A stretch of 64,000 nucleotides of DNA from Nitrososphaerota archaeon (lineage in GTDB: Archaea; Thermoproteota; Nitrososphaeria_A; Caldarchaeales; Caldarchaeaceae), in NCBI GenBank assembly GCA_041641305.1, contig JBEPYN010000002.1:352001-416000 (forward strand). The letters run 5' to 3'. Both the position numbers and the translations under genes were made by a program. Of this stretch, positions 2,025-64,000 are shown piece after piece (positions within the stretch are counted from its first letter, which is position 1; each line of letters starts with the position of its first letter). The notes under the pieces were generated by a model. It was given only the letters and a program-made list of their open reading frames with translations, made no database searches and was not told the origin of the DNA.

Positions 2025-2040
2025 TGTCAACAAGTTGACA
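2025..2040. repeat. 16-bp palindrome copy TGTCAACAAGTTGACA
   Basis: Direct reading; intergenic. Confidence 0.9.
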
Positions 2041-2052
2041 GCATTTAGGGCC

Positions 2053-59616: not shown

Positions 59617-61732
59617 CTCCCTCCTCCACTCTCTTCCTTCTCATTCTTCCCCCCCTCATCCTTCTCGCGAATACTGCTCCGAAGCCTGCTGCAGCGACAA
59701 CCATGCCAGCGAGCAGGATGAGGTCCATCAAGGCTGGAACCTGTATGGGGCCGCTTGACTGCGGCTGTCCCGGCCTCTTGACTGCTATGGGAATGGTTGC
59801 GAGCACCGTGTCACCCATCCTCATGATGATGGACGCCGCCCCCTCTCTGGCCTCTGGATAGGCTGAGACCCTGAACTGCACCATGGTTTTGCAAAGCGGC
59901 GTGACGGATACCTGGACCGTCGACGGATTCGTGGAAACGTATCCCGGCATGCCAGTGACCCAGAGCTGTATCTCCACCTTGCCGGAGAACCCGTTCCTCG
60001 GCGTCAGCTCGACTCGGATGTCTCTGCTCGAGCCGGCGAAGACCTCCAGACCCTTGGGCGCCGACGCCTCCAGCCGAGACGGCGGATAGCTTTCCTCCAC
60101 CAGCCTGTATATCGAGCCCGAGGTGACTACCAGAGCCTCCCTGCTGCTGAGCCACGCCACGGCTCTAACCGCTTCCGGTACGGCGATGGGTAGCAGAGTC
60201 GCGTTGAAGCCGTCATATAGCACGAGCTCTCCGCCTGACGTGGCGAGCAGGGCATAGGCGCCTCGCGGGTTAATGGATGCTGCGGTGAACCTTGTCTTGC
60301 CGAATGATGTGCTCCGTATCTCGTCCTGCAGGAGGTAGGCTATCTGGCCTGAGTCGCCTACCGCTATGCCTCCGCAAGCCGTGTCAACAACGTTAACCAT
60401 TCTCCCACTCATCTTGGCCACCCTCGGCTCGTCGCCCAGCCGCACCGCAACCTTGTCACCTACAGCGAAGCCGCCTGAGACCGAGTAGAGGTCCGCCGAA
60501 GTCGCGGAAACGACCTTGACCTCACCGTTCTCCGACACATCGGCCACTCTCCCGCCTTTGCCAACAAGCGTCAGCCAGTAGCCGGGCCTCCTCGACGGCG
60601 CCATGTCGTAGAAGTCGGTTGCCCGAACATCTGCCGCTGCCGGCCTGAAACCTGTTCCGTCGAAGACCCATAGCTCGCGGCCGAGGACAGCTACTTTCCC
60701 CAGAGAAAAAGCCACGCTCCTTATGTTGTCGCCGAGCGAGTAGGATGTGAAAAACCCGCTCCGGTATATGAGGAAGGTGCCGTCCTCCGCTGCGATGTAG
60801 GCTGTGCCGCCGCCGTCGGTGACCGCATCCACGTATCTCAGCGACGGGGCGAATACACGTCTGACACCGTTCTCAGAAACGGCTGCGGCGTATCCCTTGT
60901 AGCCCACGGCCATGATTGATGAGCCTTGAAGCACTAAATCCGTTGGAGACTGGTCTAGGTTCACCAAGGTGGACAGCTTTCTGTCATAGATGTCGTAGAG
61001 AAGGATAGACTGGCCCTGTGCAAGCAGAAACCCTCTTGGATGCGGCTTCATGAACGCGAACGCGCCCTGCTGAACAAGATTCTCTCCATTCATCAGACCT
61101 CTCTCAGTCAAGGCCCAGACCTTTCCCGCGAACACGTATATCTGGCGGATAGCGGCTTTAAGGTCTGCTACCGTGGAAACCTCGCCGCTGGCGACATCAA
61201 TTGATAAGAGCTTGGAGCCCGAGGCCGCATAAACCCTGTCGCCAGCAGGTGCTATGGATGAAAGCTTCCAGCCAGTGTAAACAGTTCTCTCCACCACACC
61301 ACCAGCCCTGTATACAGTGACGCTCTGGTCGCCTAGGATGTAGAAGCGGTCGCCAGATAGGCGCACAGCCTTGTAGTCCATGGTCGCCGGCCTGTAGGTC
61401 ACGAAGCTCAGCGTCTCAGGGTCTATCTCCACCACCGTACCAGACCTGCCGACCGCGACGCAGAGCCTTCCACATGCCACGCTGAACAGGTCCGATGAGG
61501 CGACGGTCAAAGCATCCGCGCGGCCGCCTCCCCACACCACAACCGCGCCCGACTTACCCACAGCCACCACTTTCTGAGCGGCCACGTCGACAGCGTAGAG
61601 GTCAGCCGATATTGTTAGCCGCTCGAGCCTGAAGCTGTAGCCGATGTCCTGCCCCTGGACTGGGAGGATGAGGGGCTGAACAAGGATTACCGCTGCCAGC
61701 AAGGCTAATGGAGCCTTCCTCACTACTCCCAC
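59603..61732 (-). CDS. Surface beta-propeller protein with Ig-like domain and C-terminal anchor
   Basis: Signal peptide, repeated AVG..G blades, C-terminal TM with basic tail. Confidence 0.8.
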   Translation of the reverse strand: MGVVRKAPLALLAAVILVQPLILPVQGQDIGYSFRLERLTISADLYAVDVAAQKVVAVGKSGAVVVWGGGRADALTVASSDLFSVACGRLCVAVGRSGTVVEIDPETLSFVTYRPATMDYKAVRLSGDRFYILGDQSVTVYRAGGVVERTVYTGWKLSSIAPAGDRVYAASGSKLLSIDVASGEVSTVADLKAAIRQIYVFAGKVWALTERGLMNGENLVQQGAFAFMKPHPRGFLLAQGQSILLYDIYDRKLSTLVNLDQSPTDLVLQGSSIMAVGYKGYAAAVSENGVRRVFAPSLRYVDAVTDGGGTAYIAAEDGTFLIYRSGFFTSYSLGDNIRSVAFSLGKVAVLGRELWVFDGTGFRPAAADVRATDFYDMAPSRRPGYWLTLVGKGGRVADVSENGEVKVVSATSADLYSVSGGFAVGDKVAVRLGDEPRVAKMSGRMVNVVDTACGGIAVGDSGQIAYLLQDEIRSTSFGKTRFTAASINPRGAYALLATSGGELVLYDGFNATLLPIAVPEAVRAVAWLSSREALVVTSGSIYRLVEESYPPSRLEASAPKGLEVFAGSSRDIRVELTPRNGFSGKVEIQLWVTGMPGYVSTNPSTVQVSVTPLCKTMVQFRVSAYPEAREGAASIIMRMGDTVLATIPIAVKRPGQPQSSGPIQVPALMDLILLAGMVVAAAGFGAVFARRMRGGRMRRKRVEEGVEEV

Positions 61733-64000
61733 CTCATCCTAGACAAAGCCTTTCTACGAATCCTCGGAACCACGAGCGCAATCACTGCTGCAACCGCGAC
61801 AGCGACCGCCGGCGTCGCAATGAGCTGTATGTCGGAGAGCGAGAGATGGGCGCCGCCGAAGCTGAACGCCACAGGGATAATGATAGTGGTTTCTTCATCG
61901 CTCTGCAGGTCTATCTGTCTCTGAACCTGCTTGGTGGAGTATGAGACATAGAGCGTGTACACGCCGGCGGGCACTCGGTCAAACGTCAGGGTCGAGCCCA
62001 CGAGCCGCGCCACAGGCCTGCCGCCGCGGATGAGGTCCACATCCGATGTGAGAGGCTGCCCCAGCTCGCCGACGACCTTGACAGTTAGCGTCGCCAGCCT
62101 CAGCCTAACCGTCTGCACCTTGCCCGGCGTGAGGCTGCCTTCTGCGACCGGGACACCTCTATAGGTCAGCTTGTAAGGTATCTGTTTGACCGGGGCCTGA
62201 GGCAGAGTAGCTCTCCCATCTCCCCCGGTTACGGCCGCGCCACCCGGCGTCTCAACCCCGACCTGCGCCACCGGCACACCGTTCTGGTCGAGGACATAGA
62301 CAACCGGCCTACCGGCCTGCACAGTCAAGCTATACAACGAGCCGTTCACGTCTACAGTGCCACTATAAACCTCCTCATCATCTAGGAGCACGGATAAGCG
62401 GTAGGAGCCATGGGGCAGGAGTCCGAAAGACGCAGAGCCGTTGACAACCTCTGCGGAAACAGTCTGGCCCCCAAGCTTCAGGGACGCGGTCGCCCTCGCA
62501 AGAGGCTCACCATCCAATGTCAACATGTTGACAGCGAACCTGCTCACCTTCGCAGTCAAAGTTACCTCAGGCCCATCCACACGTATCTCCCCCTTCAGGA
62601 CAACCGCGCCCATATACTCCGCCTCGAACACGTAGACGCCGGCTGTGGAGTTGCTTATCACGGCCTTGCCGTCGATGACTTGGAACAATTTCTTCCATGG
62701 GGCTGAGGGGGAGTGGACGAGAAGCTCCTTTACTGGAGCAGGCTCCCCATCAGCGGTCAACATCTTCACAATCAGGTCGAATACAGATAGCCTGACCTCG
62801 TGTCTGCCATGGTTTTCAGGTATGGTGTATGAGAAGCGCCCGACGACGGCTTCTTCGCCGAGTAGGGAGTTGTAGAACCTAACCTCAACCGAGTAGCTCC
62901 CCCTCGGAAGCCTCTGGAACGCAACCTCCTCACGTGATGATGCTGAAAGCTCCTCCGGAAACAGGGTTGCCGTAGCGTTGGCGGTGAGCTTCTTTCCGTA
63001 AAAGTCTCTGAAGACTAGGATGATGTCGCCGACGTCTGCCACTGCTTCCAAGCGCCCTCCAGGGTCGGGTCTGGCGAATGGCTCATCCACTTTCACCCGC
63101 CCGCTGTAGACTTCGACGTCTTTCCAGAAGGCTTTGACAGGGTACTCGCCCCACGGCACGTTGACGAAGACAGCCCGCGCCTCGCCACCGTCGGCAGGAG
63201 CCGACGCCGCCGCAGCCACTTTACCCAGCCTCACCATAGCCTCAAGCGGCCTACCGGCAAGGTCCCTGACAACCACATGAACCTCTGCCACATTGCACTT
63301 CACAGCCGGGTTGGCCGCGAGGTCAGCCAGTATCTGGAAACGTTGATGGACTAGGTAGGTCTCACCATCATATGGCGAGGTGTAGTAGGCCCTCACCAAG
63401 TAACCGCCTTCAGGCACCCTCTCCAACACCGCGTATCCCGTAGAGTTTGCTCTGAAGGTGTACTGGGCCCCTGTCAACTGGCTCTCAAGAACAAGCGTAA
63501 CATTGGGGACGCCGTGGAATCCCCAGTAATCGATTAACTGGACCGAGGCCGTCCTATATGGCTGTATCAACACGTAGTCGAGGTCCACTTGAACCGTTAG
63601 AGGGCCTATACGCCTGCCATCCGGGTAGGTGAATATCGTCCTGAACCTGAGCTCGGCCATAACCCTCCCGGTCGGCGAGTCCTGAGGAGGCGCGACAGTG
63701 ATGTTGAAGAGCTTCTCAACCCTTTCAAGCCTCTCGCCACGCGGTATATCAGCCTCCGCCACAGGCTTCCCGAAGCCGGCCACCCATATCTCCAGCCTCG
63801 TCACGTTGAAGACACCGTCTTCAAGGTTCTTCATCCTCAGCATCGCCCAGCCCCTGCCGCCGGCGTGGATGTCGCCGCGCCACTCAACTATGTCGGCTAC
63901 AACCCTCCAGAAACCCTCCGTGGCCCTGAAGAGGCATGTTGTGTAAACCATGCCCGGGGAGAAGACAACCTCATCCGACCTGAGCCTGTAGCCGCTGGCC
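61723..64000 (-). CDS. Large surface protein with tandem carboxypeptidase-regulatory/CnaB-like beta repeats; 5' end probably outside the window
   Basis: Repeated V.D..G.PL...P.G.Y.V units, C-terminal TM; frame appears open to the window edge. Confidence 0.8.
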   Translation of the reverse strand, partial: ASGYRLRSDEVVFSPGMVYTTCLFRATEGFWRVVADIVEWRGDIHAGGRGWAMLRMKNLEDGVFNVTRLEIWVAGFGKPVAEADIPRGERLERVEKLFNITVAPPQDSPTGRVMAELRFRTIFTYPDGRRIGPLTVQVDLDYVLIQPYRTASVQLIDYWGFHGVPNVTLVLESQLTGAQYTFRANSTGYAVLERVPEGGYLVRAYYTSPYDGETYLVHQRFQILADLAANPAVKCNVAEVHVVVRDLAGRPLEAMVRLGKVAAAASAPADGGEARAVFVNVPWGEYPVKAFWKDVEVYSGRVKVDEPFARPDPGGRLEAVADVGDIILVFRDFYGKKLTANATATLFPEELSASSREEVAFQRLPRGSYSVEVRFYNSLLGEEAVVGRFSYTIPENHGRHEVRLSVFDLIVKMLTADGEPAPVKELLVHSPSAPWKKLFQVIDGKAVISNSTAGVYVFEAEYMGAVVLKGEIRVDGPEVTLTAKVSRFAVNMLTLDGEPLARATASLKLGGQTVSAEVVNGSASFGLLPHGSYRLSVLLDDEEVYSGTVDVNGSLYSLTVQAGRPVVYVLDQNGVPVAQVGVETPGGAAVTGGDGRATLPQAPVKQIPYKLTYRGVPVAEGSLTPGKVQTVRLRLATLTVKVVGELGQPLTSDVDLIRGGRPVARLVGSTLTFDRVPAGVYTLYVSYSTKQVQRQIDLQSDEETTIIIPVAFSFGGAHLSLSDIQLIATPAVAVAVAAVIALVVPRIRRKALSRMRWE
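62518..62533. repeat. Perfect 16-bp palindrome copy inside a CDS
   Basis: TGTCAACATGTTGACA, within the codons for AVNMLT. Confidence 0.85.

Follow-up and report, generated by a model that had tools for sequence, protein, structure and literature searches.

A dispersed 16-bp palindrome as the probable master operator of an archaeal integrative conjugative element

The question raised by a 64,000-nt stretch of DNA from a Nitrososphaerota archaeon (hereafter the window; contig JBEPYN010000002.1, positions 352,001 to 416,000) is what is served by a 16-bp palindrome that recurs in it twelve times. A sequence-only reading of the window had proposed either a parS-like centromere or a master operator. 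The second half of that proposal has gained support, with promoter-proximal and syntenic sites, while the first has lost it, there being neither a ParA nor a ParA-binding motif. The palindrome is probably the master operator of the integrative conjugative element (ICE) in which it lies. This reading fits best because the sites are confined to a mobile island, lie close to promoters, and are syntenic between related elements with concerted sequence change. A true segregation system is not supported, and both ParABS and TubZRC are excluded by the features examined. Taken together, the sites describe cis-regulation on a conjugative island of an archaeon, and the closest known relatives of this system are KorB-OB, BisD-bisS and SopB-sopC.

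The genome that holds the window, G000, consists of four contigs (1.66 Mb), and the window is C2:352,001-416,000. The pattern TGTCAACWWGTTGACR matches 12 window positions (2025, 4692, 30487, 31117, 42943, 55159, 58087, 58146, 58192, 58249, 58308 and 62518), exactly the copies that had been listed before, against 0 matches in 100 dinucleotide-preserving shuffles and 0 expected by chance. Allowing two mismatches added no window site, and the palindrome family is thus sharply bounded. Eleven of the 12 sites lie between open reading frames (ORFs) and one, 62518, within an 837-aa ORF (61723-64236, minus strand), again as previously described; a 78-aa ORF that spans the larger cluster of sites is an artefact of crude ORF calling. 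Genome-wide, the core GTCAAC-NN-GTTGAC occurs in 18 copies, namely 17 exact-pattern sites and one CGTCAACCTGTTGACG, all within C2:354,025-435,450, and a whole-genome scan found no site in the remaining 1.54 Mb of G000. Those outside the window are a three-copy array (window-equivalent 77127, 77187 and 77246) and single sites at 65662, 80731 and 83435. A multi-copy short inverted repeat is thereby confirmed, a 7-2-7 palindrome whose 18 copies make up two arrays and 10 single loci, all on one island.

This map alters part of the earlier picture. A uniform spread over the host chromosome, which had been named as the pattern that would count against a special site, is not seen, as 18 of 18 sites fall in the island. 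The density gradient described toward 58 kb is actually one of two discrete arrays, 58087-58323 (five copies), the other being 77127-77261 (three copies), and the gradient and the intragenic copy carry little weight as arguments for a segregation site. Four chromosomal matches in G000 to the looser form YGTCAA-N4-TTGACR, mostly within ORFs, look like chance or coding conservation. The motif string itself had no match in the literature searched.

The island is an insertion of 116.7 kb (C2:346,801-463,467) that holds all 18 sites. Its flanks were compared by BLAST with two congeners of G000, G011 and G005, in which the empty site is intact and the flanks are adjacent; in G011 the left flank ends at 315,500 and the right begins at 315,496. 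(G004, G007, G009 and G012 are further congeners; L-numbers denote the loci and contigs examined.) Pfam scans of the island identified a type-IV-pilus-like operon (T2SSE ATPase, TadC-like protein, two large bitopic proteins and a tubulin/FtsZ-fold GTPase), conjugation ATPases of the VirB4/TrbE-like AAA_10 type (936 aa) and the TraG/VirD4-like type (771 aa), a class II ribonucleotide reductase, HerA-NurA, three superfamily-2 helicases, an N6-methyltransferase, two Alba paralogues, a ParB_N protein, and a TFB paralogue of cyclin folds alone. PCNA is also encoded, and one end of the island is an IS110/TasR-like gene. Because this gene set matches that described for thaumarchaeal ICEs (PMC6563490), the insertion is, judged by its genes, an ICE of the thaumarchaeal type, the host phylum of those elements being a sister group. 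All thaumarchaeal ICEs identified carry a TFIIB homologue, mostly directly upstream of a ParB-like partitioning protein, and the paper on them describes no operator, centromere or other cis-acting site (PMC6563490). The present element differs in that its TFB and ParB-like genes lie 56 kb apart rather than in one operon, and in that it is integrated beside an IS110/TasR-like gene rather than by a tyrosine integrase at a tRNA gene.

The placement of the sites within the island bears on the operator reading. When each array is counted as one locus there are 12 independent loci. Ten of these are non-coding, though ORFs of at least 60 aa take up about 93% of the island (binomial P about 2e-10). 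The tetranucleotide GGCC lies no more than 8 nt from the site at five of the 12, compared with 12% of random non-coding island positions (P 0.01); the sites concerned are 2025 (on both sides), 30487, 42943 and 55159 and, beyond the window, 77127. Start sites are unmapped, so that promoter and TATA calls are readings of the sequence. In such a reading the same sites, 2025 again on both sides, show a recurrent order toward the gene: palindrome, 1-7 nt, GGCC, 1-10 nt, an AT-rich TATA-like box, and then a leaderless ATG or a Shine-Dalgarno sequence. At least seven promoters have 13-24 nt between the end of the site and the TATA-like box downstream of it; in two or three (4692, 65662) site and box adjoin. 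The earlier remark that 2025, 30487 and 42943 sit just upstream of GGCC-type promoters is borne out by this reading, and 55159 and 77127 do likewise. The flanks of the single sites share no similarity except GGCC, and for this reason the single sites are not cassette copies and an origin from a repeated cassette or a miniature inverted-repeat transposable element was rejected. A role of the site at the RNA level is unlikely, as most sites lie upstream of TATA-like boxes. The single sites of the window are the following.

2025-2040, unstranded: palindrome TGTCAACAAGTTGACA, centre of a symmetric divergent promoter region, with GGCC at 2015 and 2049 and AT-rich boxes at 1997-2008 and 2063-2071.
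4692-4707, unstranded: palindrome, …GACG variant; on the minus strand it abuts a TATA-like box, with a 38-aa Cys-rich ORF starting 4 nt downstream, and on the plus-strand side GGCC at 4725 is followed by TACTATAA.
30487-30502, unstranded: perfect palindrome; on the plus strand followed by 7 nt, GGCC (30510), 4 nt and TTATTTAA, and on the minus-strand side 50 nt upstream of a 78-aa ORF (30200-30436).
31117-31132, unstranded: palindrome that separates the pilus operon, at its end (31151-31627), from the small gene that comes next; the same position is occupied in the G009 and G007 elements.
42943-42958, unstranded: perfect palindrome that precedes the pilus/tubulin-like operon, which runs on the minus strand from 42879 downwards.
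42911-42936, minus strand: promoter-like elements of the pilus operon, with GGCC at 42933-42936 (6 nt from the site), a TATA-like box at 42911-42922, a Shine-Dalgarno sequence and ATG at 42879.
55159-55174, unstranded: palindrome upstream of the plus-strand operon 55218-56810 (79-aa protein, Alba, CHRD, GtrA), in the order palindrome, 1 nt, GGCC (55176), 8 nt, TATACTGATTTAT, about 22 nt, ATG.
62518-62533, unstranded: palindrome, the sole clearly intragenic copy of the window, inside the 837-aa ORF, which has immunoglobulin-like domains.

Two further features of the sites were noted. All five copies that end in …GACG (4692, 31117, 55159, 58146 and C2:435,435) have the G on the plus strand regardless of the direction of the neighbouring gene, with a chance of about 1 in 16. 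Both half-sites, GTCAAC and GTTGAC, fit GTYRAC, which we take to be the recognition sequence of HincII/HindII; the island encodes a 772-aa Eco57I/MmeI-like methyltransferase (L001:3308-5626).

Comparison with relatives indicates that the site is retained at particular places. Among 400 genomes of the phylum, clustered copies of GTCAAC-NN-GTTGAC occur only in G000, in G011 and in a small contig, L061 (= G172:C83), that is identical to part of the G011 element and represents a mini-element copy. When contigs from metagenomes, genomes and viruses were scanned for pairs of palindromes separated by 28-48 bp, 62 loci were returned, all from unrelated bacteria with other GTCAAC-NN-GTTGAC variants, except L061. 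Counts of a relaxed motif were 23 in G000, 16 in G007, 9 in G009, 7 in G011 and 6 in G004, with 0-4 in other family members and 0-1 for the reversed control. Congeners G009 and G007 carry syntenic ICEs whose proteins share 45-75% aa identity with those of G000, and in these ICEs the site takes the variant form YGTCAA-N4-TTGACR, most often TGTCAAATGATTGACR; the type-2 site of G009 is TGTCAAATGATTGACG. Positions 7 and 10 are C and G in the G000 and G011 sites, and A/T in the G009 ICE-locus sites read and in most G007 sites.

Corresponding sites are found upstream of the pilus operon (42943 in G000; L084:8519 in G007; in G009 with one mismatch), downstream of that operon (31117; L081:2695/2767; L085:206), at the junction of a 218-aa and a 748-aa gene (C2:435,435 in G000; L082:9259), beside a thioredoxin-like gene (the second array of G000; L082:1251) and by pilin-like genes (55159; L083:4058). 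The sites of the sister ICEs persist while their flanks differ. Concerted change at conserved positions argues for one trans-acting reader with shifted specificity, and the sequences indicate that site and reader have co-evolved between the sister elements.

The two arrays add a second kind of conservation. The first of them lies in the window.

58087-58323, unstranded: array 1, with palindromes at 58087, 58146, 58192, 58249 and 58308 (spacings 59, 46, 57 and 59) and the module palindrome-spacer A-palindrome-spacer B-palindrome.

Array 2 (window-equivalent 77127-77261) has three copies, and the period of the arrays is 57-60 bp. The module, of 135 bp, is common to array 1, array 2 and the G011 array. 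Spacer A holds a TATA-like TTTATATGG and then GAACTTTGTGTCAAGCC; spacer B holds AGTAGCTACAAA, a variable 3-7 nt and TTTGTAG, with a hairpin CTACAA…TTGTAG. The genes that flank the arrays are 74-83% identical in DNA between G000 and G011 and the 14-bp core is kept in four of four G011 palindromes; because an intact core is rarely expected from chance drift at such flank identity, the palindromes have been under selection. In G011 the array lies between a DUF996 gene and the TFB paralogue (L005:10568-11366), while the equivalent slot in G000 (window 19125-22953) holds a 933-aa gene and an opposite-strand M48 peptidase and no array, which suggests that arrays move within the element.

The conserved element of spacer B, AGTAG(C/A)TACAAA…TTTGTAG, has a stem of 6-8 bp and a loop of 3-7 nt, one copy pairing only with G-U (copies at window 58103-58145 and 58265-58307, at L001:13203-13245, and at L005:10726-10770 and 10846-10888). 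The TATA-like box of spacer A points into it. Because the loop varies, the hairpin may be an RNA or single-strand structure; no Rfam family was found in or around array 1. The arrays are not CRISPR arrays, since the repeat is 16 bp and not at least 24, the spacers are conserved between arrays and species, the repeat also stands singly at promoters, and Rfam gave no match.

As to what reads the palindrome, the sequence-only reading had seen no ParB. None is indeed present in the window, and one is encoded 16 kb further along the replicon, on the minus strand at C2:431,634-432,641 (window-equivalent 79634-80641). A perfect palindrome lies 90 bp upstream of its start. The analogy to parS is strengthened by a helix-turn-helix (HTH) protein of the ParB/Noc/KorB fold at this distance with a site at this position. 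The protein matches PF02195 at 1.3e-15, and its closest solved relatives by sequence are Noc (1.4e-14) and Spo0J (4.6e-12), over residues 3-137. Its architecture comprises a CTPase-fold N-domain with GxxR, an HTH (…YRAAAALLGVSHEEIRRVL…), a disordered linker and a C-terminal CxxC…CxxC Zn-ribbon domain. Six orthologues have the HTH, the linker, the CxxC…CxxC domain and the nucleotide-binding GxxR motif G64-S-R-R67, whose G-S-R-R is invariant; the orthologues P0005 and P0006 stand at 79% and 68%. In the AlphaFold2 model, residues 10-145 (N-domain and HTH) have a predicted local distance difference test (pLDDT) score of 75-90. Foldseek ranks Noc, PadC, ParB and a KorB-KorA-DNA complex highest; VIA gives Z scores of 13.8 for PadC, 11.8 for KorB and 10.8 for pNOB8-like ParB-N (140 residues), and residues 106-155 align with many HTH DNA-binding domains.

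The downstream neighbour of the ParB-like gene encodes a RecA/KaiC-like ATPase, and the pair is conserved in G009. No ParA-type or AAA_31 ATPase was found in the island, a PF13614 search returning only a chromosomal gene at C2:292.6 kb, and the N-terminus of the ParB-like protein has no LG[KR]GL ParA-binding motif. On these two grounds the sequence points to an orphan ParB, a kind of protein often found on mobile elements (PMC12704722). The viral contigs searched held no loci related to it.

ParB-family HTH proteins read inverted repeats of 13-16 bp, either in tandem or dispersed (PMC3177203). KorB has 12 OB operators on the IncP plasmid RK2 (PMC11790492), and BisD is a ParB-like clamp on ICEclc of Pseudomonas putida (PMC12409273). 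Family precedent (sopC, KorB, BisD), the site in the gene's own promoter, and a G009 recognition helix that differs where the site differs (SHEEIRRVL in the G009 ICE orthologue against SHETIRLAL, alongside the changed inner site bases) together favour the ParB-like protein as reader. We put it forward tentatively as the candidate binder.

The likeness to KorB-OB is one of both protein and layout. In each case a conjugative element encodes an HTH protein of the ParB-CTPase fold and carries about a dozen dispersed short palindromes, some promoter-adjacent and some distant; through its operators KorB exerts global control of transfer, replication and maintenance operons (PMC11790492). The ParB-like model superposes on the KorB-KorA-DNA complex 8qa9 with a root-mean-square deviation of 3.1 over 149 columns. 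The present system differs in its archaeal host, with promoters built of TATA and B-recognition elements, in that any partner would be the TFB paralogue and not KorA or TrbA, in having no IncC/ParA partner, in a 16-bp 7-2-7 site that also forms arrays, in a C-terminal Zn-ribbon module where KorB has a dimerisation domain, and in that binding is here putative. BisD, with BisC, resembles it as a ParB-like clamp that an ICE encodes; the clamp is loaded at palindromes of the parS kind and acts together with another transcription factor in switching on transfer-competence promoters (PMC12409273). ICEclc, however, has two bisS sites and long-range sliding where the present element has 18 sites mostly at promoters, and the domain architecture and domain of life are others. 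SopB of plasmid F is a ParB-family HTH protein that reads a 16-bp 7-2-7 repeat, TGGGACC-AC-GGTCCCA, which occurs either in tandem (12 x 43 bp) or, as the sopC-like sites of N15-type phages, dispersed (PMC3177203), but the Sop system has a ParA-type motor, SopA, whereas here there is no motor, the sites are promoter-associated, and the copies recur every 57-60 bp, the spacers between them being conserved and functional in appearance.

Among archaeal systems, the conjugative plasmid pNOB8 of Sulfolobus likewise has a ParB-N-fold protein (5k5d) and a palindromic site upstream of an operon. The pNOB8 site is read by a separate winged-HTH protein, AspA, and a ParA motor is present. In contrast, the ParB-like protein described here carries an HTH itself, and no gene was found for ParA or for an AspA-like protein.

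The reading we favour is a master operator of the KorB/BisD kind whose hubs are the two sopC-like arrays; in the full form given here, with the ParB-like protein as its reader, it is somewhat less likely than not. An ICE-encoded, sequence-specific, dimeric DNA-binding protein would use the palindrome as an operator or loading site. The ParB-like protein would bind the 7-2-7 palindromes, by analogy with KorB-OB and BisD-bisS, and from there would influence the GGCC-TATA promoters beside them, perhaps with the TFB paralogue, either locally or after sliding; this binding, the sign of the regulation and any CTP-dependent sliding are what we infer. The element would thereby control its own operons, namely those for the pilus and mating apparatus, for glycosylation and pilin, and for replication and repair, as well as the ParB-like gene, and the two arrays would be high-occupancy hubs comparable to sopC. 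A bolder version, which we consider speculative and on balance unlikely, is that this would be the first archaeal ParB-CTPase-type clamp to act as a transcription regulator, one that loads at 16-bp palindromes preceding GGCC-TATA promoters by one to two helical turns, cooperates with the TFB paralogue in an ICE-specific programme, has an operator specificity that co-evolves between sister ICEs, and has had its operator borrowed by IS110/TasR-like elements.

Several observations weigh against the ParB-like protein as reader. Protein and site occur together in G000 and G009, while G007 has just a partial relative (HTH and C-domain without the CTPase domain), and in G011 and G004 the sites stand alone: G011 has two arrays with intact palindromes but no orthologue of the protein or of its C-domain, and G004 has 6 sites and likewise no orthologue. 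The metagenome-assembled genomes compared are incomplete, and G011 may be a composite assembly, from which variable elements could be missing. The ParB-like gene of G009 is preceded by an unrelated palindrome, TCTCATCA-N3-TGATGAGA, and not by a GTCAA-type site. Box II reads GSRR rather than GERR. What ties the protein to the site is circumstantial, namely proximity, and another possible reader, the TFB paralogue, has a close orthologue in exactly the two type-1 carriers, G000 and G011.

The G009 palindrome is a perfect 8-3-8 repeat (L070:2525-2543, or G009:C32:6562-6580) between a TATA-like box and a Shine-Dalgarno sequence, is single-copy in G009, and may be a separate autoregulatory operator. 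The C-terminal Zn-ribbon domain also occurs elsewhere, on its own or in other fusions: in G009 in a 148-aa protein (L082:3419-3862) with a GTCAA-type site within about 180 bp upstream of the matched stretch, and in G007 in a 266-aa protein with an HTH-like N-terminus (L093:3744-4544).

The strongest alternative keeps the master operator and changes its reader. The palindrome would then be read by another factor of the element, such as the TFB paralogue (alone or partnered), a 218-aa Zn-ribbon protein, a 105-aa PC4-like protein or an unrecognised small protein, and the ParB-like gene would be merely a target. We consider this rather unlikely, although the sites without a ParB-like protein in G011 and G004 speak for it. 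The first candidate lies in the window.

23222-23836, minus strand: TFB/TFIIB paralogue, cyclin folds only; candidate reader-partner at GGCC-TATA promoters.

Within the genus its only close orthologue is that of G011, 460 bp from the G011 palindrome array. With TBP at the TATA box, however, a TFB core cannot extend to a site that lies 18-20 nt further upstream, and the perfect dyad points to a dimeric reader. The 105-aa protein (P0002) is encoded by precisely those five genomes of the genus that are rich in the motif, but also by G012, which has no sites, and its nearest folds, of the PC4/DUF3276 type, match weakly (template modelling score 0.38). The 218-aa Zn-ribbon protein is encoded just downstream of the C2:435,435 site, and the site upstream of its gene is conserved in G000 and G009; against it, the protein has no recognisable DNA-binding fold, and an Atlas search was empty.

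Among the binders suggested earlier, the region 24017-24702 contains the only winged HTH found (24017-24382, P0004; TrmB at E 2.7e-4), which is confined to G000; none of the 11 congeners has a homologue, the motif carriers G007, G009 and G011 among them. An operator of a nearby classical winged-HTH regulator of the TrmB/MarR type was rejected in the same way, as the cognate gene is not conserved with the sites. A 161-aa ORF at 58349-58834, also put forward then, matched nothing in Pfam or PHROG, and the same searches were negative for the 81-aa, 78-aa and 70-aa ORFs, the last of which is hydrophobic. The 175-aa ORF just downstream of array 1 (57501-58028) reads as a membrane HExxH protein and was set aside.

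A centromere is the next reading to be considered. The arrays would be partition sites, as parS or sopC, for an excised and replicating element, and the single copies secondary loading sites. The 16-bp 7-2-7 architecture is that of parS and sopC, two tandem arrays with dispersed copies recall F and N15-type replicons (PMC3177203), and a ParB-fold protein is encoded on the element. The missing ParA/AAA_31 ATPase and LG[KR]GL motif nevertheless make this improbable, as does the strong promoter association, which a centromere would not need; chromosomal ParABS is generally absent from archaea (PMC12704722). By analogy with KorB, which does both, a centromere and regulation are compatible.

A tubulin-based version fares no better. 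The 94-aa protein proposed earlier as a TubR-like binder (35944-36228) is modelled as a wingless bundle of four to five helices (pLDDT 81.5) with no PDB match at E<=0.001, and its partner, the sixth gene of the pilus operon, is a tubulin-fold GTPase nearest FtsZ/CetZ (2.5e-10), with no TubZ among the 50 matches listed. The palindromes nearest to the pair are 31117, 3.8 kb downstream at the operon end, and 42943, 6.7 kb upstream at the operon start. With no winged-helix TubR, a GTPase that is not TubZ-like and no palindromes adjoining the gene pair, a TubZRC system was rejected. The two genes (window 34931-36228) travel as a module, and G007 has a second copy outside the pilus operon (L091:6277-7556, on G007:C41), beside the gene of the 105-aa protein and small Zn-finger genes. 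A secreted or anchored nuclease-like protein of the PLD family (window 6263-6970; HKD motif, Thr-rich linker) is kept in the G009 and G007 elements beside the site 3' of the pilus operon.

Somewhat less probable still is that the arrays are iterons at which replication or transfer of the element begins, an initiator such as the 263-aa AAA+/MCM-P-loop protein being their binder and the single sites auxiliaries. The 135-bp module, with its AT-rich stretch and variable-loop hairpin, suggests single-strand structure, TATA-like AT stretches occur in the spacers, array 2 abuts the AAA+ gene, which is conserved in G009, and the element carries PCNA, helicases and HerA/NurA. The AAA+ protein, however, has no winged-helix DNA-binding domain of the sort expected in an Orc1/Cdc6-type initiator at ORB repeats, G009 has one site where G000 has an array, 13 sites lie far from the arrays and at promoters, and no relaxase is known in thaumarchaeal ICEs (PMC6563490).

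The IS110/TasR-like elements have their own link to the palindrome. In G007 a block of more than 100 bp, in which TATATAAA abuts TGTCAAATGATTGACA, recurs in at least seven small TasR-like elements (L086:935, L087:1608, L088:1193, L089:823, L092:767, L090:6643 and L085:206). The block is placed between the TasR-like gene and whichever element end borders on chromosomal genes, by our estimate about 750 bp upstream of the TasR-like gene. This block looks like the promoter/operator of a unit of TasR and guide RNA, shared with the resident ICE. Either the TasR-like elements have borrowed the ICE operator for co-expression, or the site would serve their own biology; the latter is ranked low because copies in G000 outside the island lack the site. 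The weakest reading, that the palindrome is a cis-element of RNA-guided elements of this type (a portable promoter/operator cassette or a recombination recognition site) spread within the island, is very improbable: two or three palindromes do end a TasR-like mini-element in G011 and L061, and the island itself terminates in a TasR-like gene, but the single sites of G000 share no flanks beyond GGCC, and regulation better explains why three elements keep the site in synteny at their ICE promoters.

To our knowledge, archaeal conjugative elements are poorly understood, and we know of no account of the timing of their transfer. Now that a 16-bp site is defined, with 18 copies in nature, two variants of specificity in sister elements and a candidate reader that can be named, the question of why TFIIB and ParB homologues are paired on such elements becomes experimentally tractable. 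If the ParB-like protein is not the reader, what is left is still the regulon of an archaeal ICE of 117 kb, defined by its sites, and a cis-element that RNA-guided insertion elements have in common with it. If it is, the principle known from KorB, BisD and VirB, in which a CTP-switch clamp serves as a gene regulator, would extend to the Archaea and to TBP/TFB promoters.

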